NCBI GenBank assembly: GCA_963779905.1
Contig: CAWAAF010000010.1
Span: forward strand, 457,957 to 521,956
Direction of reading: 5' to 3'
DNA length: 64,000 bases
DNA from: an uncultured Chloroflexia bacterium
Lineage (GTDB): Bacteria > Chloroflexota > Limnocylindria > Limnocylindrales > CSP1-4
The notes under the pieces are model-generated. The model did not search any database. It was not told the DNA's origin and saw nothing but the letters and a program-made list of their open reading frames with translations. Shown piece after piece: positions 5,435 to 54,694 of this stretch. The position numbers were made by a program, and so were the translations under genes. Each line of letters starts with the position of its first letter. The first letter of the stretch is position 1.

Positions 5435-6480
5435 ATGGCCGGTGTCGACGTCGCGGCCGGCGAGCACGCCGTCGACCTCATGCGGCGGCGAGTCGAAGAC
5501 GACGTTCGGTACGGAGGTGCTGACCGGGCTGGGCTCGTTCGCTGCCGCGATCGCCCTGCCCGCAGGGCTGCGGGAGCCGGTGCTGGTGTCCGCCACGGAC
5601 GGCGTTGGCACGAAGACGGCGATCGCGGCCCAGCTCGGCCGTTACGACACGATCGGTATCGACTTCGTGGCAATGTGCGTCGACGATGTCGTCTGCCTCG
5701 GCGCGCGACCGCTTCTTCTTTCTGGATTACGTCGCCGTCGAACGGCTCGATCCTCGATCGCTGGCGTCGCTCGTCGACGGCGTGGTCGCCGGCTGCCGGC
5801 TGGCCGGCTGCGCGCTAGATCGGCGGCGAGACGGCCGAGCATCCGGGCGTCTGGCAGCCGGGCTACTTCGACGTGGCCGGCTTCTGCGTCGGCATCGCCG
5901 AACGGGCCGACATGATTGCCGGGCCTGCAGGGCCGGCCGGGTGACGCGCTGGTCGGCATCGCCGCCAGCGGCCTGCACAGCAACGGCTTCTCGCTCGTGC
6001 GCAAGATCGTCGCCGAGCACGGCCTCGACCTGGATGCGCCGTTCGCCGACAGCCGATGCCGCGCTCGGCGACGCGCTGCTGACGCCGACGCGCATCTATG
6101 CCGTCGATGCACTCGCTCTGCGGCGAGGAGCTGCGCCGGATCGGGCGGCCTGTGCGCGGTTTCGCCCATATCACCGGCGGCGGACTGGCCGCCAACGTCC
6201 CGCGCGCACTGGTCGGGCACGCAGCGGCGGCCCGAGTCGACCCGACGCGCTGGCCGATGCCGCAGCTGTCAGGCCGCACTCGCCGACGCTCGCCGGCATG
6301 ACCGCGGCTGAAGCTCGCACGGTGTGGAACGGCGGGATCGGCATGGTCGCCGTGGTCGAGTCCTCGGCAGTGCAGCCGGCCATCGCATTCCTCGCCGGTC
6401 GTGGCCTGCCGGCTTGGCACATCGGCGACGTAATCGAGCGCGAGGGCGACCAGCGCTACGTCGAGGAGGGTTTCGGCTGA
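5435..6480 (+). CDS. purM: AIR synthetase PurM (multiple apparent frameshifts)
   Basis: GGGAGG sits 8 nt upstream of ATG 5435. AIR synthetase sequence (…[40 protein letters not shown]…, …[19 protein letters not shown]…) is spread over ORFs 5435.., 4707..5915, 5605..6480, 5916..6311 and 6098..6301. Confidence 0.85.
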
Positions 6481-7045
6481 GGGTCGCCGTCTGCGTCAGC
6501 CGGACCGGCACGAACCTGCGCTCGCTGGTCGAGGCTGCGCGCGCCGGCCGCCTGCCGATCGAGGTAGTGCTGGTCGTCGCCGACCGACCATGCCCCGCGC
6601 TGGCCTGGGCGCACGATCAGGGGCTGCCCAGCGGTCCAGCTCGACGAGACAGGACGCCGATGCGCTGGATCGGACGGCATGGCTGACCTGCTGACAGGCG
6701 CCGAGCCCGATGTCGTCGTGCTGGCCGGCTACATGCGCATCGTCGGCCCGCGAGACGCTGGCCGCGTACGGCGGACGCATGCTGAACGTCCATCCGTCGC
6801 TGCTGCCCGCGTTTCCGGGCGCCAACGCCGTGCGCGACGCACTGTCGGCCGGCGTCAAGACGACCGGCGTAACAGTCCACCTGGTCGACGAGCATCTTGA
6901 TAACGGCCCGATCTTGCTACAGGAGCCGGTCGCGATTGCCCCGACCGACGACGAGGCAAGACTGCTGGAGCGTCTCCACGAGGTCGAACACCGGCTGCTG
7001 GCGCAGGCCGTTTTGCTGGTTGGTTCTGCCGATGCCGCGGACGCG
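6477..7045 (+). CDS. purN: GAR formyltransferase PurN (boundaries approximate)
   Basis: [37 protein letters not shown]… then …DVVVLAGYMRIVGP…MLNVHPSLLPAFPGANAVRDAL…VTVHLVDEHLDNGPILLQEPV, read across ORFs 6324..6686, 6679..6900 and 6710... There is no in-frame stop before purH, and the start codon is unclear. Confidence 0.7.
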
Positions 7046-35140: not shown

Positions 35141-37322
35141 TTGATCAACCGCCTTATCTCCTTCTATCGGCTGCAATTCGAGCTGCTCTGGAAGTGGCGG
35201 CCGGGCCGGCGCGCGCTTTTGAAGCGCGGCATTGTGTCGCTGGTGGTGGGCACGGTGGCCATGCTGCTCACGGCGGTGATCTTGCCCGGCGTCAAGATCG
35301 ACAACCTCGCGACGCTCGTCTTTGCCGTGGTCCTGCTGGCGCTCGTCAACGCCCTCGTGCGGCCGGTGATCCTGGGCGCTTTCGCCAGCGTTTCGGCGGT
35401 GGCCGTCATTTTGGGTACGTTGATCTTCCAGGTGCTGGCCTTCTTCCTGATCGACTGGCTGCTGCCGGGCTTCCATCTGACCGGCGTGATTCCGGCCTTC
35501 TTCGGTCCGATCGTGTTCGCGCTGTTCAACACGATCCTGTCGGCCATCCTGAACACCGACGCCGAACCGTCGCTACTACGCCCAGCTGGTGGCGCGTCTC
35601 GCGCGCAACCGGCCCGACCGCATCGATAGCGATAAACCGGGCGTGGTCATCGTCCAGATCGACGGCCTGGCCCAGCCCATCCTGGCCCACCAGATCCGCG
35701 CCGGTCGCGTGCCCTTCCTGGCCAAGTGGATCCGCTCGGGCCAGATGAAGCTCGACAAATGGACGGCCCTCCTGCCCTCCCAGACGTCGGCCAGCCAGGC
35801 CGGCATCCTGCATGGCAACAACAGCTTCATTCCCGCCTTCCGCTGGTGGGAAAAGGACAGCCAGCGGATGCTGGTCTCGAACCATCCGGCCGACGCCGCC
35901 GAGATCGTTACGCGGGCCTCGAACGGCGAGGGGCTGCTGTCCAACGATGGCGCCAGCGTGGGCAACCTGGTCACCGGCGATGCCGTTCGCGCCTACCTGA
36001 CCATGGCGTCGATGACCAACCCGCAGCAGGGCCTGGGCCAGAGCCGCGCCTGGTATTCGTTCTTCGTCAGCCCGGACAACTACCTGCGCGTGCTGGTGCT
36101 CTCGATAGGCGAAGTGATCAAGGAATACTTCCAGGCATCGCGCGCCAATCGGCGCGGCATCGAGCCGTCGATGCACCGTGGCTGGCCCTATCCGGTAGTG
36201 CGCGCCGCCACCAATGTCGGGCTGCGCTCACTGTCGACGGCGCTGGTAATGGAAGAGATGTACCGCGGCACGCCGGTCATCTACGTCGACTACACCGATT
36301 ACGACGAGATCGCCCACCACTCCGGCCCGGAGCGCTCCGAGACGCTCGACGCGCTCGACGGCGTGGACACGCAGGTGAAGGCACTGGTCAAGGCGGCCGA
36401 GGATGCGCCGCGGCCGTACAAGTTCGTGCTACTGGGTGACCACGGCCAGAGCCTCGGCGCGACGTTCCGCCAGCGCTACGGCTACACCCTGCAGGAGCAC
36501 GTCGCCAAGCTGATGGGCGGCGCCACGGACGTCGAGGCGGCAACCGGTCGCGTCGAAGAGTGGGGACCGATCAACGCCGCCGTCACCGAAGCTTCACGAG
36601 CGGGGGGCGCAACGGGCGCGATGGCCCGTGCCGCCGCCGGTGGCAATACCAAGGACGGTGCCGTCGACTTCGCGCCCGAGGAGGAACAGGTAGCCGAAAC
36701 CGGCGACAAGACCGACAAGCAGCCGCCCGAGCTGGTTGTCTGCGCCAGCGGCAACCTCGGCCTGATCTACTTCCCGCGCCTACCCGGGCGAGTCTCGCTC
36801 GAGCAGATCGACAAGACCTGGCCCGGCCTGGTCGAGGGCATGATCAACCACCCCGGCGTGGGCGTGATCATGGGCCATTCACTCGCGCGGGGCTCGGTGG
36901 CGCTGGGCAGGGACGGCGCGCACTACCTGGAGAGCGATGAAGTCGAGGGTGTCGACCCGCTGGCCCAGTACGGCGAGCACGCGCTGACCGGCATGCGCCG
37001 TGTCGACGGTATGGCCAACTGCCCGGACCTCGTCGCGGTCAGCCTGCTCGATCCGGCGACCGACGAGGTGGCCGCCTTCGAGGAGCTGATCGGTTCGCAC
37101 GGTGGCCTGGGCGGCGCGCAGACGAGCCCGTTCATCCTGCACCCGGCGGAGTGGACCATCGACGAGCCGATCATCGGCGCCGAAGCCGTTTACCGGCAGA
37201 TCCGCAAGTGGCTGTCGGGCGTTGGCATCGAGCTTGGCAAGAACGGCGGTCAGCCGGCCCCGTCAGTCAAGGTCGAGGCTGCCGCCGGGCTCGATCACGC
37301 AAACGCGGGTAGTCGGAGCTAG
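35141..37322 (+). CDS. phage-holin-family-4-like 4TM domain fused to alkaline-phosphatase-like (nucleotide pyrophosphatase/phosphodiesterase) domain (apparent frameshift near 35580)
   Basis: The N-terminal ORF 35141..35629 is hydrophobic. ORF 35589..37322 continues without a break (…GILHGNNSFIPAFRWW…, DHGQS…). This fusion is recurrent in actinobacteria. Confidence 0.7.
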
Positions 37323-38006
37323 TTCGGCCACCGCCGTCGCAAACTGGCGCGCCGGTTGGTCGGGCATCAGCCGGCGCATGCCCATCGGGTAGAGCGAGCC
37401 CCAGTGAATGGGCACGGCCACGCGTGCCCGCAGCAGGGCCGCGGCTTCGGCGGCGCGGCGCGGGTTCATGTGGCCGGGTCCCAGTCGCGGTCCCCAACCC
37501 CAGATCGGCAGTAGTGCGACATCGGGCGTGGCGATGGCCGCCATGCCCTCGTAGATGTCCGTGTCGCCGGCGAAGTAGACGCGCTGGTCGCCCTCGATGA
37601 CGTAGCCCAGCGCCTGCGCTGTTGGCCCAAGCGGCGGCCGCTGCCCACTGTGCTCGGCCTTGACCACGTTGATGGCCACCTGGTCGATGTTCAGCACGTC
37701 GCCTACGCCCACCTCTTCAACATCCGTGAAGCCGAGCCGCTTGACGATCTGGCCCAGGCCGCGCGGCAGGATGACTCGCGTCGAGCGCTCGAGCAGGCGC
37801 AGGGATGATTCGTGCAAGTGGTCGTAGTGCGCGTGGCTGATCACGACTGCATCGAGGCCGTCCTCGAGCGAGCGCAGGTCGATGGGTGCGCTGCGCAGGA
37901 CCCCGGCCACCCGTTGACGAAGGATCGGGTCGGTCAGGATCTTGAGCCGGCCGGTCTCGATCAGGACGGTGGCGTGGCCGAGATAGGTCAGCCGGGTGTT
38001 GCCCAT
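37263..38006 (-). CDS. MBL-fold metallo-hydrolase
   Basis: HxHxDH motif (VISHAHYDHL) and downstream His/Asp ligands are present. The start is MGNTRLTYLGHATVLIE. Confidence 0.8.
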   Translation of the reverse strand: MGNTRLTYLGHATVLIETGRLKILTDPILRQRVAGVLRSAPIDLRSLEDGLDAVVISHAHYDHLHESSLRLLERSTRVILPRGLGQIVKRLGFTDVEEVGVGDVLNIDQVAINVVKAEHSGQRPPLGPTAQALGYVIEGDQRVYFAGDTDIYEGMAAIATPDVALLPIWGWGPRLGPGHMNPRRAAEAAALLRARVAVPIHWGSLYPMGMRRLMPDQPARQFATAVAELAPTTRVCVIEPGGSLDLD

Positions 38007-38204
38007 CCACTCACTGTTGCGCGCCGGGCGCCGTCCAGTCGACCGCGCGCGCACCACCACGCCCACGCCCGAGCGTGAACGGAGGTCCCCCGTACCAAGT
38101 GGCTAGGCCCGCAAGGAGGGGCAGGTACGGAAGGACTGCTACCACCTAACCGCACCAGACCTTACCGTCCCGCCCAAGTAGTGCCCCGCACCACACCAAA
38201 CGCT

Positions 38205-38290
38205 ACTGAAACAAGGCAAACCCGCCGCGAGACGGGGACGCAAAGCCAGGGATCTCCGGCCCCTAGACGGAGACCGCCCGGTTGCCAGAT
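38205..38290 (+). ncRNA. candidate c-di-GMP-I (GEMM) riboswitch
   Basis: The hallmark motifs GGCAAACC (38214-38221) and GACGCAAAGCC (38236-38246) are 14 nt apart, matching the spacing in the Vibrio cholerae Vc2 aptamer. The intervening CCCGCC-GCGA-GACGGG can form P2 with a GNRA loop. Downstream TCTCCG/CGGAGA forms a P3-like stem, and GGUUGCC closes the aptamer. It lies 35 nt upstream of the S8 peptidase-GGDEF/EAL operon. Confidence 0.55.
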
Positions 38291-38324
38291 AAGCGGACCG
38301 ACCAGGGACAGGGAGGAAACCCAG

Positions 38325-40112
38325 GTGTCGCTCGCCGCTCCAGCCAACTCATCGTCGCGCCGGCTGCCCATCGCCGCCGTTGTCGCCCTCTCGCTCGCCC
38401 TCGCGCTGCTGCTTACGCTCGTCGCCGTTGGCGCGCCCAGCGCAGGCGCCGGACTGACCCACGCCGGCAGCGCCCGCATCCAGTTCCTGACCGACCCCTA
38501 CGACGGCCTGTCCGGCTCGCTCTATAACGTCAACCAACAGATCAACGCCGACAGCTATTGGTCCAACGGCTACACCGGCGCCGGCGTCGACGTCGCGCTG
38601 ATCGACAGCGGTACCGCGCCCGTCGCCGCGCTCGCCGGATCTGACAAGGTCATTTACGGGCCCGATGTGTCGTACGAGAGCGGCCAGGACAGCCTGCGTA
38701 ACCTCGACACGTTCGGTCATGGCACACATATGGCCGGCATCATCGCCGGACGCAGCGACGGCTTCCAGGGCGTCGCCTACGGCGCCCGCATCGTCAGCAT
38801 GAAGGCGGCCGACGCACACGGCCAAACCAACCTCGCCCAACTCGTGGCCGAGATCAAATGGGTAACTCAGCACGCACACGACAACGGCATGAACATCCGC
38901 GTGCTCAATCTCTCGTTCGGCGCGCTCCCTACGAGCGGCTACCGCAAGGACGATCTCGCTTATGCAGTTGAACGCGCATGGAGCGCCGGCATCGTCACAG
39001 TCGTTGCCGCCGGCAATGAGGGGGCGCCCTCCAACGGCCTCGACACACCTGCCTTCGACCCCTACGTCATCGCTGTCGGTGCCGACAATCCTCAGGGCAC
39101 GATCGACGTAAGCGATGACAACGTCGCCTCGTTCAGCAGCCGCGGCAACGGCTGGCGCGACCCGGACGTCATCGCCCCCGGCAAGAGTGTCGTCAGCCTG
39201 CGCGTGCCCGGCTCATACCTCGATGATCAGTATCCGGACGCCCGCGTGGGCACCGACTACTTCCGCGGCAGCGGCACCTCGCAGGCCGCAGCCGTCGTCT
39301 CAGGCGCGGCCGCTTTGATCATCAGCCAGCGACCGAACATCACGCCCGACCAGCTCAAGGGCCTGCTGAAGGCGACGGCCCAGCCGATCCCGAACGCCTC
39401 CTACTCCGCCCAGGGCGCCGGCCTGATCAACCTCGGTGCCGCCTTCGATGCGAACACGCCCAGCTCCCCTCAGTACTGGCAGCATTCCAACGGCAGCCCG
39501 CAGGGTGTGTGGGGCAGCGTCGCCGACGCCACCGGCAACTCGTGGTCGACGGCCAGCGCCGGCAACTCGTGGTCCGGCAACAGCTGGACCAGCAGCGGCT
39601 GGACCGGCCCGGGCTGGGATGACGACACCACCTCAACGCAGGGCAACTCGTGGTCGACCAAGATGTGGCTGGGCGTCTCGTGGACCAAGCCAAAGGGCGA
39701 CAAGGTGCCGCCGGTCCAGGCCGAGCCACAAGACCGCGGCGTTTGCACTCAGTGGTTCCTCGAAAAGAAGCGCGACTCCAACGGCGTGTCGTGGGGCAAG
39801 AAGACCAAGAAGGTCCACACGTCCGCCGGCGGTTCACGCGACCGCGACGAGTTCGGCGTGTCGTGGGGCAAGCGTGACAAGGGGATACACGGCAACCGCA
39901 GCCAGTCGCTTGACTTCTGCGACTGGAAGCACGAGCAGTGGGAGTCAAAGAAGGTCGTCCGCACGGACACCTCCGGTGGCCAGTCAGTCGACACTTCGAA
40001 CAACTTCCGTGAGCTGGGCGTGTCGTGGGGCAGGCGCAAGGGGGGACCCAGCTCGCCCACCTCGGCCACCGATGAGCCGGGCGCATATCGCAGCGGATGG
40101 AGCGTGGAATGA
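38325..40112 (+). CDS. secreted S8-family subtilisin-like serine peptidase with C-terminal Trp-motif repeat tail
   Basis: GGGAGG sits 8 nt upstream of GTG 38325. A signal/TM segment is followed by the catalytic triad contexts DSG, HGTHMAG and GTSQAAAVVSG. The C-terminal ~190 aa carry repeated NSWS / GVSWG(K/R) motifs. Confidence 0.85.
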   Translation: MSLAAPANSSSRRLPIAAVVALSLALALLLTLVAVGAPSAGAGLTHAGSARIQFLTDPYDGLSGSLYNVNQQINADSYWSNGYTGAGVDVALIDSGTAPVAALAGSDKVIYGPDVSYESGQDSLRNLDTFGHGTHMAGIIAGRSDGFQGVAYGARIVSMKAADAHGQTNLAQLVAEIKWVTQHAHDNGMNIRVLNLSFGALPTSGYRKDDLAYAVERAWSAGIVTVVAAGNEGAPSNGLDTPAFDPYVIAVGADNPQGTIDVSDDNVASFSSRGNGWRDPDVIAPGKSVVSLRVPGSYLDDQYPDARVGTDYFRGSGTSQAAAVVSGAAALIISQRPNITPDQLKGLLKATAQPIPNASYSAQGAGLINLGAAFDANTPSSPQYWQHSNGSPQGVWGSVADATGNSWSTASAGNSWSGNSWTSSGWTGPGWDDDTTSTQGNSWSTKMWLGVSWTKPKGDKVPPVQAEPQDRGVCTQWFLEKKRDSNGVSWGKKTKKVHTSAGGSRDRDEFGVSWGKRDKGIHGNRSQSLDFCDWKHEQWESKKVVRTDTSGGQSVDTSNNFRELGVSWGRRKGGPSSPTSATDEPGAYRSGWSVE

Positions 40113-42791
40113 GCGCGCGCACCCTCGCCGCGCCCATCGTTGAGCGCTTCGCGGGCCGTTCACTGACCGGCTCACAGCGGGTCTGGCTGCTCAACCTGGC
40201 GCTGAGTGCCTCAGCGCTCAGCCTGTTCGCCCTGCTGGTCGTGCCTTTGCCGGCGCGCAGCGTGGGCCCATCGATGCCCTGGCTCGCCCTGGCCGCGCTG
40301 TTCTACGCCGCCGAGATCCTCGTCGTGCACTTCCAGTTCCGGCGGGAGATTCACACCTTCTCGCTGTCAGAGATCCCGTTCGTGCTCGGCCTGCTGTTCG
40401 CCACGCCCGTCGAGTTCGTGCTGGCCAACGTTGCCGGCGCCGCCCTGGCGCTGGTCATCCACCGCCGCCAACCGCCCATCAAGCTGATCTTCAACGTATC
40501 CCAGTTCGCGCTCGGCGCAGTGCTGGGCGTGGTCGTCTTCAACGTCTTGCGCAGCGGCGCCACGGCGCCTTCGCCGACGCTGTGGGTGTCCGCCCTGATG
40601 GCGACGCTGGTGGCCAACCTCGTCGGCATCCTGACCATTGCCATCGCCATCGCCCTGTCGGAGCGGCGCATCGAGGTGCGCAAGCTGACCCAGGTGCTCA
40701 AGTTCGGCTTGGCCGTCGGCACCACCAACACCATCGTCGTGCTTACCGCGGTCACCTTCCTGTGGGCAGACCCGGAGATGCTGTGGATCCTGGCCCTGCC
40801 GGCCGTGCTGCTGTATCTCGCCTATCGCGCATACATGTCAGAACGCGAGAAGCACGAGAGCCTCGAGTTCCTGTACGAGTCGACGACCATCCTGCAACGG
40901 ACGCCGGAGCTCGACACGGCCATCGTGCAGCTGCTGGGCCATGCCCGGAAGATGTTCCGGGCGGAGGTCGCCGAACTGACGCTGATGCCGCACGGCGAAG
41001 CGCGTGACGCGCTGCGCACGAGGCTGGGGCCGGCCGACGAGTCGCGCGTGATGGAAGCCGTCCGCGCTGCCGAACTGGCCGACATCTGGCAGCGCCTGCA
41101 GGAGAGCGATAACGGATTCCTCATCCGCCGATCCGATACCGATGCTGCCGCCACGCTTACGACCAACGCCGGCTACGAAGTCCGGGACGGTTTGGTCGCG
41201 CCTCTCCGCGGTGACCGCGGCGTGCTCGGCCTGATGGTTGTCGCCAATCGCCTGGGCGATGTCAGCACATTCGACGACGACGACGTGCGCCTGCTCGAGA
41301 CGCTGGCACGCCACGCCGGCGTCGCCCTCGAGAACGGCCGGCTGGGGGAATCCCTCAAACAGCTGACCGAGCTCAAGGAGCAACTGCGCTACCAGGCCTA
41401 CCACGATTCACTGACCGGCCTGGCCAACCGCGCCCTCTTCCTGGAGCGCGTCGGTGAGGCGTGTGACGCGTCGAAGCGCCGGCAGGGGCCGATCGTTCTG
41501 TTCGTCGACCTCGACGACTTCAAGACGGTCAACGATTCACTCGGCCATGCCGCCGGCGACGCCCTGCTGTCGGCGGTCGCCGACCGGCTGCGCGGCTGCC
41601 TGCGCCCGACCGACCTGGCGGCCCGCCTGGGCGGCGACGAATTCGCCATCCTGCTCGAGGGCGGCGAGGTCGAACACGCCCTCGCCATCGGCGAGCGGAT
41701 CATCGGCGCGCTGCGCGCACCGTTCTGGGTCGACGGCAACGAAGTCGATGTGCGGGCCAGCGTCGGCATCGCCACCCGCACTTCGCAGGACGACACGCCC
41801 GACAACCTGCTGCGCAACGCCGACGTCGCGATGTACACGGCCAAGGCGCGCGGCAAGGCGCGCGTGGCGCTGTTCCAACCCGAGATGCATGCCGCGGTGG
41901 TGGCTCGCCACGCCCTGACTGGGCGGCTGCAGAAGGCGCTGGCCGAGCAGCAGTTCGTCATCCACTACCAGCCCATCGTCGACCTGCACACGGGTGCGAT
42001 CAACGGCGCCGAGGCCCTCGTGCGCTGGCGCCAGCCCGACCGCTCACTGATGCCGCCAATGGAGTTCATCCCGCTGGCCGAGGAAACGGGCCTGATCCTG
42101 CCCATCGGTCGCTGGGTGCTCGAGACGGCCTGCCGGCAGGCCGCGGCGTGGTCGCGACTCGTCCCCGGTCGCCACTTCAAGATGGGCGTCAACCTGTCGG
42201 CACGCCAGGTCCAGCAGGCAGGTTTCGTCGACGAGATCGCCGAAATCCTGGAGCAGTCCCACCTTGACCCAACCGCCCTTGTGCTCGAGATCACCGAGAC
42301 GGTGATGATGCAGGACACGGCGGCCACCAGCGCCAAGCTGGCTGCGCTCAAGCATCTCGGCATCAAGCTCGCCATCGACGACTTCGGCACCGGCTACTCG
42401 TCGCTCTCGTACCTGCGCCGCTTCCCCGTCGACGAGCTCAAGATGGCCAAGCCCTTCGTCGAGGTCGCCGGCCCGCGCCGGCGCGACTCGGCCTTCGCTT
42501 CGGCCATCATCGCGCTTGGGCCACTCCCTCAGCCTGTCGATCGTCGCCGAGGGCATCGAGCGCGCCGAGCAGCTGCGCGTGCTGCGCAAGCTCGGTTGCG
42601 ATCAGGGCCAGGGTTACTTCTTCGGCCAGCCGATGGAGGCCGGCCGACTATCTGCCCTGCTGCTGGCCGGCCAGCGCATCGTCGACAACCAGGAACCGGT
42701 TGCACTGCCCGTGACCGGGCAGACCCAGGCCGTCACGCGACGGCGCACGGCCGGCCCTGCTCACCGCGAAACCGCAATCCGCATCTCCTAG
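40109..42791 (+). CDS. membrane-anchored GAF-GGDEF-EAL c-di-GMP turnover protein (apparent frameshift near 42500)
   Basis: Its ATG overlaps the peptidase TGA. Five or more TM helices are followed by a GAF domain, a GGDEF domain (…RLGGDEFAILL…) and an EAL domain (…QPIVDLHTGAINGAEALVRW…, …LAIDDFGTGYSSLSYL…). The C-terminus is in ORF 42516..42791. Confidence 0.85.
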
Positions 42792-42796
42792 GCACG

Positions 42797-42822
42797 GGGG
42801 CCGGGAGGCTGGGCCCGGCCCC
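42797..42822 (+). terminator. GC-rich hairpin after the GGDEF-EAL gene (no U-tract)
   Basis: GGGGCCGGG-aggctgg-CCCGGCCCC lies immediately after the stop. Confidence 0.3.
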
Positions 42823-42877
42823 GTCGTGCCACTCGGCATAACATTCGTGTGTGACTGCCGACCCTGGGACAACTGGT

Positions 42878-52711: not shown

Positions 52712-54694
52712 CTACCCCGCCGTTGGCGCAGGCACCGCTCCGAGGCCGTGTGACATGGCCGGTACCGGCGCGCGCGCCGGCAGCGCCGGTTCGCGTCGAC
52801 CGTCGACTGCCTGTTCGCTGGCGGGCGTTGTTTCTGGCGCCTGCTCCCGCCGTCCGGGCCGCGAGCGCTTGGCTGAATACATGGCCGAGTCGGCTGCCTG
52901 CAGCAGCAGCGTTGCCGTCCGCCCGTTTTCCGGGTACATGGCCAGTCCGCCACTGACCCCAACTCGCGCCGTGGCGCCGCCCGAAAGCTCATGGCGCCGC
53001 TCGCGGATGCCGACGATGACTCGCCGCGCAACTTCCTGGGCGCCATCCTCGGTGGTGTCGGGCATGACCACGACGAACTCGTCGCCGCCGTAGCGAGCAA
53101 CGATGTCGTTGGCCCGCACGACATTCCGGATCGTGCGCGCGACCTCGCGCAGCACCCGGTCACCGTCGGCGTGGCCGTACTTGTCGTTGATCGGCTTGAA
53201 CTCGTCGAGGTCGAGCATGAGCACCGACAACGTGCTCTTGTTGCGCGCAGCACGGGCCACTTCCTGACGCAGCCGGTCCTGCAGGTAGCGGTGGTTGTGG
53301 GCGCCGGTCACCTGGTCGATGTCGGCGGCATGGCGCAGTTGCTCCAGCAGGTGTGCATTTTCCAGGCCGGCCGCGGCCGTCGAGGCCATCGTCTGGAAAA
53401 CCTGCATATCGCCAGGGCTGACGTGGCGCTTGGCACGCAGCGAGATCAGCTCGACCAGCCCGACGGACTTGCCGCCGGCGGTGAGCGGCAGCATCAGCAG
53501 CGTCTTACCACCCATGTCGGCCAATGCGCGCGCTTCGGCAGCGGCGTCATCGGTCGAGTCGCAGTGGATGACGCGCGGTTTAGCGCTGCGCAGCACGCTC
53601 CACGTGGCCGGAAACTCGGCGATATCCGTCACGCCGTCCGGCTGCTCGATGCCGTCCTGGGCAAGGCCGGTCAGGACGGTCGAGTTTTCCTCCCAGCGCG
53701 AGATCACACAGGCGTCCATCCGGCTGGCGGCACGCATCTTGGCGGCCAGCGCCCGGGCCAGCGTCATTTCGTCGGTGGCGCCGCTGGTGGCCTGGCTGAT
53801 GTCGAGCAATGCGGCGAGCTCTTCAACGAGCTCCTCGCGCGCGCGCAGCAATCGTGCGTTCTCGACGGCGACAGCGGCCTGATCGGACAAGACCTGCACG
53901 AGGCGGAGGTCGTCGTCATTGAAGTGGCGCGGGGTGCGAGCAAGCAGGCTGATGACGCCGTTCACCCAATCGTCAGCACGCATCGGCACGACGAGCATTG
54001 ACCACGTTCCGGGTCGCTCGGCACCGGCGTCCGCAATCTGCGGCACCACGAACGGGGCGCCACTGGTCAAGGCACGCCAGATCGCGCTGGCCGGCATGCC
54101 ATCGGCGGGCAATGGCTGTGGTTGACCATGACCGTCGACAGGCGCGCCGCTGACCGCGACCAGCTCGAGCGTCGGTGGCCCGGCTGTCGGATCGGCCAAT
54201 GGTGGATTGCTCATGTAGACGTGGACCTCTTCGCAGTCGAAGATCCGGCGCGCCTCGTCACACACGACGCTACCCAGGGCGGCCATTACCGCTTCGATCG
54301 AGGTCAACCGGGTCAGTTGCGCCCCCACGCGCTGGACTGTTTCGAGCTGGCGCGCCCAGGTCGATCCTGTCGCGCCAACACCGGCCACGACGTTGGTCGC
54401 GAATTGGCGCGCATAGAGCCGCGCCAGGGCAATCTCGTCGCGCGAGAAGTCCTGGCGGCCCACCCGTTCCAGCACGACGGAGCCGCCCGAGGCGTCAGGC
54501 ACGGCAACGATCAGCTGGCGCTCTGCATCACCCTCACGGCGCAGAATCCGCGTGAGCGGGTTGGCCACTCCGGGCGGGCGGCCAATGGTGGCCATCGGGC
54601 GCAGCGCCCCGTCGGCATCGGCCAGCAGCAGGACGCCCGACTGAGCGCCCACCGCCTGGCACAGCTCGGATAGGGTTCGGGTGAGGTCAGCCAC
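52712..54694 (-). CDS. GAF-GAF-GGDEF diguanylate cyclase
   Basis: Two GAF-like regions, then GGDEF (…RYGGDEFVVVMPD…) with an I-site-like context. Confidence 0.85.
   Translation of the reverse strand: MADLTRTLSELCQAVGAQSGVLLLADADGALRPMATIGRPPGVANPLTRILRREGDAERQLIVAVPDASGGSVVLERVGRQDFSRDEIALARLYARQFATNVVAGVGATGSTWARQLETVQRVGAQLTRLTSIEAVMAALGSVVCDEARRIFDCEEVHVYMSNPPLADPTAGPPTLELVAVSGAPVDGHGQPQPLPADGMPASAIWRALTSGAPFVVPQIADAGAERPGTWSMLVVPMRADDWVNGVISLLARTPRHFNDDDLRLVQVLSDQAAVAVENARLLRAREELVEELAALLDISQATSGATDEMTLARALAAKMRAASRMDACVISRWEENSTVLTGLAQDGIEQPDGVTDIAEFPATWSVLRSAKPRVIHCDSTDDAAAEARALADMGGKTLLMLPLTAGGKSVGLVELISLRAKRHVSPGDMQVFQTMASTAAAGLENAHLLEQLRHAADIDQVTGAHNHRYLQDRLRQEVARAARNKSTLSVLMLDLDEFKPINDKYGHADGDRVLREVARTIRNVVRANDIVARYGGDEFVVVMPDTTEDGAQEVARRVIVGIRERRHELSGGATARVGVSGGLAMYPENGRTATLLLQAADSAMYSAKRSRPGRREQAPETTPASEQAVDGRREPALPARAPVPAMSHGLGAVPAPTAG

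Follow-up and report, generated by a model that had tools for sequence, protein, structure and literature searches.

A predicted c-di-GMP-I riboswitch upstream of an S8 peptidase and GGDEF-EAL operon in an uncultured Chloroflexota bacterium

Does the leader of a secreted peptidase operon in an uncultured, high-GC soil bacterium contain a genuine sensor of cyclic di-GMP (c-di-GMP), and in which direction would such a sensor act on the genes behind it? The question is raised by a stretch of 64,000 nucleotides (nt) from an uncultured Chloroflexia bacterium (contig CAWAAF010000010.1), referred to here as the window, in which a 258-nt intergenic gap precedes a gene for an S8 (subtilisin-family) peptidase and a gene for a GAF-GGDEF-EAL protein. 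A preliminary description had proposed a c-di-GMP-I (GEMM-I) riboswitch in this gap. Based on the analysis described here, we suggest that the RNA at 38205-38289 is very probably a genuine c-di-GMP-I riboswitch controlling this operon, with c-di-GMP as its predicted ligand.

Both strands of the window were scanned against the 4227 families of Rfam 15 at their gathering thresholds. The sole match in the whole 64 kb was RF01051 (c-di-GMP-I) on the + strand at 38205-38289, which agrees with the span of 38205-38290 given in the preliminary description. The match covered model positions 1-87 of 87 with an E-value of 3.1e-9, and its score of 60.0 bits, the check that had been proposed with cmsearch, was far above the gathering threshold of 35. 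The c-di-GMP-II family (RF01786) gave no match in the window at gathering score and none at E<=1 within 38100-38400. The two GEMM-I segments named before can be read directly in the sequence as GGCAAACC (38215-38222) and GACGCAAAGCC (38237-38247), and the spacing between them is exactly 14 nt (CGCCGCGAGACGGG), folding as a hairpin as had been claimed. Likewise, the P3-like stem of UCUCCG (38253-58) with CGGAGA (38268-73) and the closing GGUUGCC (38280-86) are present. The parts of the aptamer are the following.

38205-38289, + strand: c-di-GMP-I (GEMM-I) aptamer of 85 nt, matched by RF01051 and kept in 16 other loci
38206-38208 with 38286-38288, + strand: helix P1, CUG with CAG; the CG pair is kept in 13/13 leaders and the other two pairs in 10/13
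38201-38203 with 38293-38295, + strand: possible extension of P1, CGC with GCG across an internal loop, recognized by eye
38215, + strand: G20-equivalent, predicted ligand contact, aligned to RF01051 and RF03167 (role from PMC4744006)
38221-38236, + strand: first hairpin (P1b, or P2 in the preliminary description), with six pairs (38221-26 with 38231-36) and the GNRA loop GCGA (38227-38230)
38239, 38276 and 38242, + strand: C44-equivalent, its partner the G83-equivalent, and the A47-equivalent, respectively, from the model alignment (PMC4744006, PMC11705072)
38244-38283, + strand: second hairpin (P2, or P3 in the preliminary description), with the base AGCC-A-GGG...CCC-GGUU and the distal stem UCUCCG/CGGAGA
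38285, + strand: C92-equivalent, predicted ligand contact from the model alignment (role from PMC4744006)

Every helix of the three-helix junction, in which P1 and the two hairpins are joined by GGCAAAC and ACGCAAAGC, is able to form. When the named structure was examined in 13 homologues, 93.9% of the cells were paired, compared with 31-46% when the partners were slid as a control, and the two helices of the second hairpin reached 98.9% and 92.2%. Where the first hairpin of the window has the C25.A32 mismatch, relatives have C-G or U.G. The possible P1 extension, again read by eye, has counterparts in both window-like clades (CGC:GCG) and in the Chloroflexota locus L003 (CGGC:GCCG). In the alignment to RF01051, the ligand-contact equivalents G38215, A38242 and C38285 and the pair C38239:G38276 are all canonical. 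G20, A47 and C92 touch the ligand and the interhelical C:G pair is universally conserved (PMC4744006), and the C44-G83 pair has been described together with a contact between a GAAA tetraloop and its receptor (PMC11705072).

The aptamer is also conserved in front of the peptidase gene. Close homologues of the S8 peptidase, with 56-92% identity, came from metagenomes only, and DNA was recovered for 12 loci (L081-L092), five of which encode one identical S8 protein, giving eight distinct homologues. RF01051 matched the leaders of 12/12 of these loci with 57-63 bits, and 31-37 nt lie between the end of the match and the aligned start codon. When 80 species-representative genomes that encode an S8 relative at 43-56% identity were sampled, the aptamer was present in 4/80 loci, all from Chloroflexota (L002, L003, L029 and L030). 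The preliminary description had expected the leader to be kept upstream of orthologous peptidase genes, and this expectation was borne out by the 12 close-homologue loci and the four Chloroflexota genomes.

Two observations weigh against the assignment. First, covariation, which had been proposed as support, did not supply it, since among 13 unique leaders double changes were seen at only two pairs and were not above shuffles. We attribute this sparseness to the close similarity of the 13 leaders, and therefore base the assignment to RF01051 on the Rfam match and on conservation. Second, the GCGA loop has no canonical receptor as judged from the sequence; the tetraloop receptor CUAAG...UAUG was not seen in 38244-38283, where the second hairpin is a plain stem. 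Docking of a GNRA loop into a tetraloop receptor is the common 'type 1' architecture and is not family-wide. The single-sequence folding energy of the aptamer was ordinary (z -0.59 versus shuffles), as is normal for short GC-rich RNAs, and we count it neither for nor against the family call. The complete leader and the hairpin enclosing the ribosome binding site (RBS) likewise had z-scores near 0. By every criterion that can be tested at the level of sequence, the RNA is an ordinary member of RF01051 and a predicted c-di-GMP sensor.

How could binding of the ligand reach the genes? The following features lie behind the aptamer.

38293-38335, + strand: tentative hairpin enclosing the RBS, whose loop holds the Shine-Dalgarno sequence and whose stem includes the start codon
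38312-38316, + strand: Shine-Dalgarno sequence GGAGG, 8 nt before the start codon and conserved in the leader alignment
38325-40112, + strand: S8 (subtilisin-family) peptidase gene with a GTG start (Pfam PF00082, E 1e-41)

No intrinsic terminator was found on the + strand of the leader; the only match lay within the first hairpin, on the minus strand. The distance from the aptamer is 22 nt to the Shine-Dalgarno sequence and 35 nt to the start codon of the S8 gene; in most instances of the aptamer subclass that we collected from metagenomes (see below), start codons lie 10-60 nt past the aptamer among the matches listed. Based on these observations, we infer that translational control is the most economical reading, and the riboswitch probably acts at this level, a judgment held with modest confidence. 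In the proposed mechanism, c-di-GMP would bind at the three-helix junction (G38215, A38242 and C38285) of a leader of about 150 nt and lock P1, the 3' strand of which lies only 4 nt from the hairpin that would enclose the Shine-Dalgarno sequence and pair the GUG start. The signal would alter translation initiation on the peptidase gene and, via the ATGA overlap by which the GGDEF-EAL start overlaps the S8 stop by 4 nt, also on the GGDEF-EAL gene.

Given translational control, the models weakly favor an ON switch, and we lean slightly to this direction. The folded aptamer would withdraw UCUCC (38253-57) and the linker GCG (38293-95) from pairing with or closing the RBS, and this GCG could instead extend P1 by pairing with CGC (38201-03); it is from both of these candidate alternative pairings that an ON switch is predicted. 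The RBS hairpin would consist of GCGGAC (38293-98) with GCUCGC (38330-35), ACC (38301-03) with GGU (38324-26), and GGG (38305-07) with CCC (38320-22), and its topology recurs in 13/13 leaders, with the inner stem GGG:CCC in one clade and GUGC:GCAC in another. In the free ensemble of the window clade, GGGAG in the Shine-Dalgarno sequence pairs with UCUCC at 38253-57, in the 5' strand of the distal second hairpin, with a probability of 0.87-0.96, and when the aptamer was enforced the accessibility of the Shine-Dalgarno sequence rose from 0.20 to 0.52. When 37 unique leaders were modelled in this way, enforcing the aptamer raised RBS accessibility in 18 and lowered it in 1. In a control with swapped flanks, the change was +0.053 with the native flanks versus +0.030 (p 0.026), a statistic that ignores relatedness. 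Competition between the extended P1 and the RBS hairpin altered the modelled accessibility little. A single switching mechanism for all clades was rejected, since the pairing with UCUCC is limited to the window clade.

Several points weigh against the ON direction. First, the stability of the RBS hairpin did not exceed that of dinucleotide shuffles (z -0.4 to +0.8). Second, in L084/85, L087/92 and the four Chloroflexota leaders, the accessibility of the Shine-Dalgarno sequence and the start codon was unchanged in the models. Third, the flank-swap effect was marginal, and did not reach significance when either the Shine-Dalgarno sequence or the start codon was considered by itself. Finally, the class I riboswitches of Clostridioides difficile are mostly OFF switches, including the one before zmpI (PMC6200980), and Vc2 is also OFF, repressing translation upon P1 formation (PMC11705072).

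This last point speaks for the same aptamer working as an OFF switch, in which a ligand-stabilized P1 would stack on the start-codon hairpin and stabilize it, or would free an anti-Shine-Dalgarno element, so that less of the protease and of the GGDEF-EAL protein would be made at high c-di-GMP. The spacing of only 4 nt between P1 and the RBS hairpin would suit such a switch, as would the start codon, which is largely paired in both the free and the constrained ensembles (unpaired probability 0.03-0.35). On the contrary, the modelled accessibility fell in only one of the 37 leaders and rose in 18, and in the window clade the free-state partner of the Shine-Dalgarno sequence sits inside the aptamer itself. 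We consider an OFF switch the less probable direction, with an appreciable chance of being correct, and retain the ON switch as the weakly preferred one.

The riboswitch might also act on transcription or on the fate of the RNA, through termination by Rho, a GC-rich terminator that lacks U residues, or access of RNases. A scan for consensus terminators is blind to such signals, high-GC organisms often have terminators without U tracts, the 3' hairpin of this operon has none, and the conserved hairpin at 38178-94, close to where the transcript is predicted to begin, may point to regulated RNA stability. However, the interval between the aptamer and the start codon is only 35 nt long, its one stem-loop holds both the Shine-Dalgarno sequence and the start codon, and the short spacing recurs across the subclass. 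Compared with translational control, an effect on transcription or RNA fate thus appears unlikely.

It is far less likely still that the RNA is a specificity variant, either of the GGC type (RF03167) or of the type that senses cyclic GMP-AMP (cGAMP), and responds to another dinucleotide. The score of RF03167 on the window, 57.8 bits, falls slightly short of its gathering threshold of 59, and this model was the top match in L002, L003 and L030; the short second hairpin without a receptor also resembles the RF03167 model. However, the window and all 16 relatives carry A at the diagnostic position (A38242 within GACGCAAAG), whereas the RF03167 consensus is G (GACGCGAA). Because of this diagnostic A in all 17 sequences and the sub-threshold score, the GGC variant was rejected, and the predicted ligand is c-di-GMP rather than a variant ligand. 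cGAMP-sensing GEMM-I RNAs reportedly carry A, not G, at the G20-equivalent; the window has G38215, and therefore c-di-GMP is predicted over cGAMP as well. In addition, the genes downstream of such aptamers include GGDEF-EAL and HD-GYP-type (HD_5) proteins, which argues against a variant. Finally, a chance resemblance or a decayed relic without a regulatory role, to which a fold no more stable than shuffles and the broken EAL frame downstream might point, is effectively refuted by the match with an E-value of 3e-9 across the full-length model and by near-invariant conservation across loci with differing flanking genes, and the broken frame is probably an assembly error, as the purN-purH gene of the same window also shifts frame twice.

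We then examined the operon and its surroundings, which contain the following further features.

37263-38066, - strand: divergent upstream gene encoding a metallo-beta-lactamase-fold protein
40109-42791, + strand: gene for a multi-pass membrane GAF-GGDEF-EAL protein with an ATG start, from Pfam and from tblastn against intact orthologues
42792-42825, + strand: GC-rich hairpin without a U tract directly 3' of the GGDEF-EAL stop (minimum free energy -34.9 kcal/mol, z -2.1)

The operon is as described before, with genes for a Peptidase_S8 protein with a signal-like N-terminus and a multi-pass membrane GAF-GGDEF-EAL protein. The catalytic residues D94/H132/S319 of the S8 peptidase are invariant, and its N-terminus contains RR and is signal-like, with a hydrophobic segment at residues 11-45. 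Its C-terminal third (39530-40100, residues ~400-595) has no Pfam domain and is formed by Trp-rich repeats, comprising four GNSW(S/T), one GVSWT and three GVSWG(K/R) units with charged stretches between them; the Trp positions are kept in homologues, and this region may bind the cell wall or a substrate. The start of the GGDEF-EAL gene, previously placed at 40097, is corrected to the ATG at 40109 by comparison with orthologues. The protein has about six hydrophobic segments followed by the GAF, GGDEF and EAL domains, and contains an intact GGDEF motif, an RxxD I-site, the EAL motif and DDFGTGYSS.

When the gene was compared by tblastn with the intact orthologues of L082 and L084 (87-89% identity; intact orthologues are 892-900 amino acids (aa) long), one extra base at ~42517-42521, in a GGGCC run, was found to shift the frame within the EAL domain, the remainder of which (EGIE, QGYFF) continues in the other frame to the stop at 42789-91. 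The fused purN-purH gene also shows two frame changes, in the region 6450-6780, relative to homologues of 690-760 aa, suggesting indel errors in the assembly, and genes are fragmented in the sister contigs L081, L085 and L086 of the same ENA accession series. Based on these observations, the EAL frameshift is probably an assembly indel and not the mark of a pseudogene. The hairpin at 42792-42825 has near-identical counterparts after the stop in L082, L084 and L087 and probably ends the operon; it is reminiscent of the terminators without U tracts that are reported for high-GC bacteria. Past the operon, the same strand carries genes for a GNAT protein and a thioredoxin. Another c-di-GMP gene, for a protein with GAF-GAF-GGDEF domains (52712-54694, - strand), is located 10 kb downstream and is not preceded by a riboswitch.

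The leader upstream of the aptamer is conserved as well, and contains three candidate elements.

38083-38133, + strand: conserved block of GTCCCCCGTACCAAGNGGCTA and GGTAC(G/T)GA, including the inverted repeat CCGTACC...GGTACGG, with invariant columns across 9 loci
38163-38168, + strand: candidate -10 hexamer TACCGT of the TANNNT type
38178-38194, + strand: small hairpin GUAGUGC-CCC-GCACCAC, close to the predicted transcript start, from the leader alignment

In an alignment of nine leaders with differing upstream genes, conservation reached ~125 nt upstream of the aptamer, and both GTCCCCCGTACCAAGNGGCTA and GGTAC(G/T)GA were confined to loci bearing the riboswitch. The block at 38083-38133 had no Rfam match even at E<=5 and its RNAalifold consensus fold was weak, and we dropped the idea that it is a known RNA on these grounds. 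Since it lies upstream of the proposed promoter, our guess is a transcription-factor site or operator. The segment ACCNTACC(G/T)T (38159-68) is conserved in all 13 close leaders, and a T(G/T)NT(A/C)C element is located 17-18 nt upstream of the TANNNT-type element. A scan of the leader with the sigma-70 consensus gave no promoter match; the TANNNT element is a plausible promoter in view of its conservation, with a transcript start predicted near 38176. The small hairpin has counterparts in L087 and L092 (GCAGU...ACUGC and GCAGUG...CACUGC) with one compensatory pair (U-A to C-G), and RNAalifold paired the 38178-38194 region differently. It may serve as a 5' stabilizer of the mRNA.

The peptidase and the c-di-GMP enzyme travel together more widely than the riboswitch does. 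Among L081-L092, the S8 gene followed by the GGDEF-EAL gene is intact in 8/12 loci, the downstream gene is fragmented in 3/12 and the contig ends early in 1/12, so that a gene for the transmembrane (TM) GAF-GGDEF-EAL protein is present in all 11 assessable loci. The same S8 and TM-GAF-GGDEF-EAL genes were found in 3/3 Chloroflexota aptamer loci that were checked. The S8-homologue matches were divided between Actinomycetota and Chloroflexota. For PurH, the nearest named relative with a readable phylum label came from a metagenome-assembled genome of Chloroflexota, with an identity of about 70%. The remaining 76 genome loci gave no match to a covariance model built from these leaders, and a sample of 13 of them had no Rfam match. 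In 58 of these 76 riboswitch-less genomes, a GGDEF-EAL homologue starts within 1.5 kb downstream of the S8 gene. Among these riboswitch-less genomes, carriers of the adjacent pair of S8 and TM-GAF-GGDEF-EAL genes include Blastococcus, Geodermatophilus, Actinoplanes, Dormibacterota and Chloroflexota (e.g., L007:5001-9101 and L012:5001-9109). Judging from these gene orders, the same-strand pair looks like an old, widespread and apparently undescribed cassette. Since it is kept in 58/76 loci without the riboswitch, the riboswitch looks like a later addition in one subclade.

An exact-pattern scan of metagenome contigs for the core of this aptamer subclass gave at least 126 instances in at least 120 contigs, mostly from soil. 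Among the matches listed, Peptidase_S8 was the commonest downstream family (26 of 79 open reading frames (ORFs) of at least 100 aa), and the other downstream ORFs included two HD_5 proteins and were mostly glycosyl hydrolases and other putatively extracellular proteins. The second commonest target, with about 16-22 cases among these matches, was an unannotated family of ~210 aa (200-230 aa) with an MPYIIRP-like N-terminus, a signal peptide, a conserved Cys, a DDVYVDPY[SA]R-like C-terminus and no Pfam domain; examples are L094:975-1616, L130:218-814 and L204:524-1129, and the family is absent from the window. Tandem aptamer cores 126-134 nt apart were seen before S8-like peptidase genes in two long metagenome contigs, at L133:2764-2926 and L164:1432-1602, and L099, L113 and L158 carry two aptamer copies each, ~520-560 nt apart.

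What would such a riboswitch mean for its host? To our knowledge, almost nothing is known of c-di-GMP signalling in uncultured high-GC soil lineages, and here a riboswitch predicted with high confidence to sense c-di-GMP is found in one of them. An association of c-di-GMP riboswitches with genes for GGDEF and EAL proteins has reportedly been noted already. If the RNA sensed c-di-GMP directly and thereby governed both the secreted serine protease and the bifunctional c-di-GMP enzyme, an autoregulatory loop would result, and the feedback control proposed in the preliminary description depends on which activity dominates, GGDEF or EAL, the EAL frame being broken in the assembly. One may speculate further that the riboswitch, the secreted S8 peptidase and the membrane GAF-GGDEF-EAL protein form a self-contained c-di-GMP circuit, in which the S8 and GGDEF-EAL genes are an undescribed cassette of Actinomycetota, Chloroflexota and Dormibacterota, the protease signals to or processes the sensor, and a soil subclade added RNA feedback and put the secreted ~210-aa family under the control of the aptamer as well; taken as a whole, this picture is rather doubtful. 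The known workings of the riboswitch class are unchanged by these findings, which add a new instance of a well-known family. The conserved cassette is the more intriguing by-product, and the cross-phylum pairing of S8 with GGDEF/EAL, the S8 peptidase as the commonest target and the unannotated secreted family are possible entry points to the c-di-GMP physiology of soil Terrabacteria. These wider observations may prove more useful than the riboswitch itself.

Comparison with known systems places the RNA among the class I aptamers. The preliminary description had held that it mirrors Vc2 from the tfoY leader of Vibrio cholerae, and this stands for the RF01051 family, the three-helix junction, the contacts G20/A47/C92 and the C44:G83 pair, and also for a GNRA loop on the first hairpin and the lack of a following terminator, which fits translational control. 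It does not extend to the loop and its receptor, since the loop is GAAA in Vc2 and GCGA here, and the 11-nt tetraloop receptor (CCUAAG...UAUGG) is missing from the second hairpin. In addition, the linker to the RBS is much shorter here (22 nt), the models lean to ON here, as opposed to the OFF switch Vc2, and the host of Vc2 is a gammaproteobacterium and not a high-GC soil lineage. The c-di-GMP-I-GGC RNAs of RF03167 are very similar in sequence outside the binding site and share the high GC content and the short second hairpin without a receptor, but their defining G at the A47 position is replaced by A38242. In C. difficile, Cdi-1-12 is likewise a class I riboswitch that governs a secreted protease (PMC6200980), although its target is the zinc metalloprotease gene zmpI and not an S8 serine protease gene, and it acts on transcription as an OFF switch, with a terminator, in front of a monocistronic gene. 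Vc1 from the gbpA leader of V. cholerae is a class I aptamer that raises expression of a secreted protein with c-di-GMP (PMC4744006), the behaviour proposed here, although its target is a chitin-binding adhesin and its operon contains no c-di-GMP enzyme. Like Vc1 and Vc2, the RNA of the window is a class I aptamer without a terminator, and a translational output is presumed here likewise.

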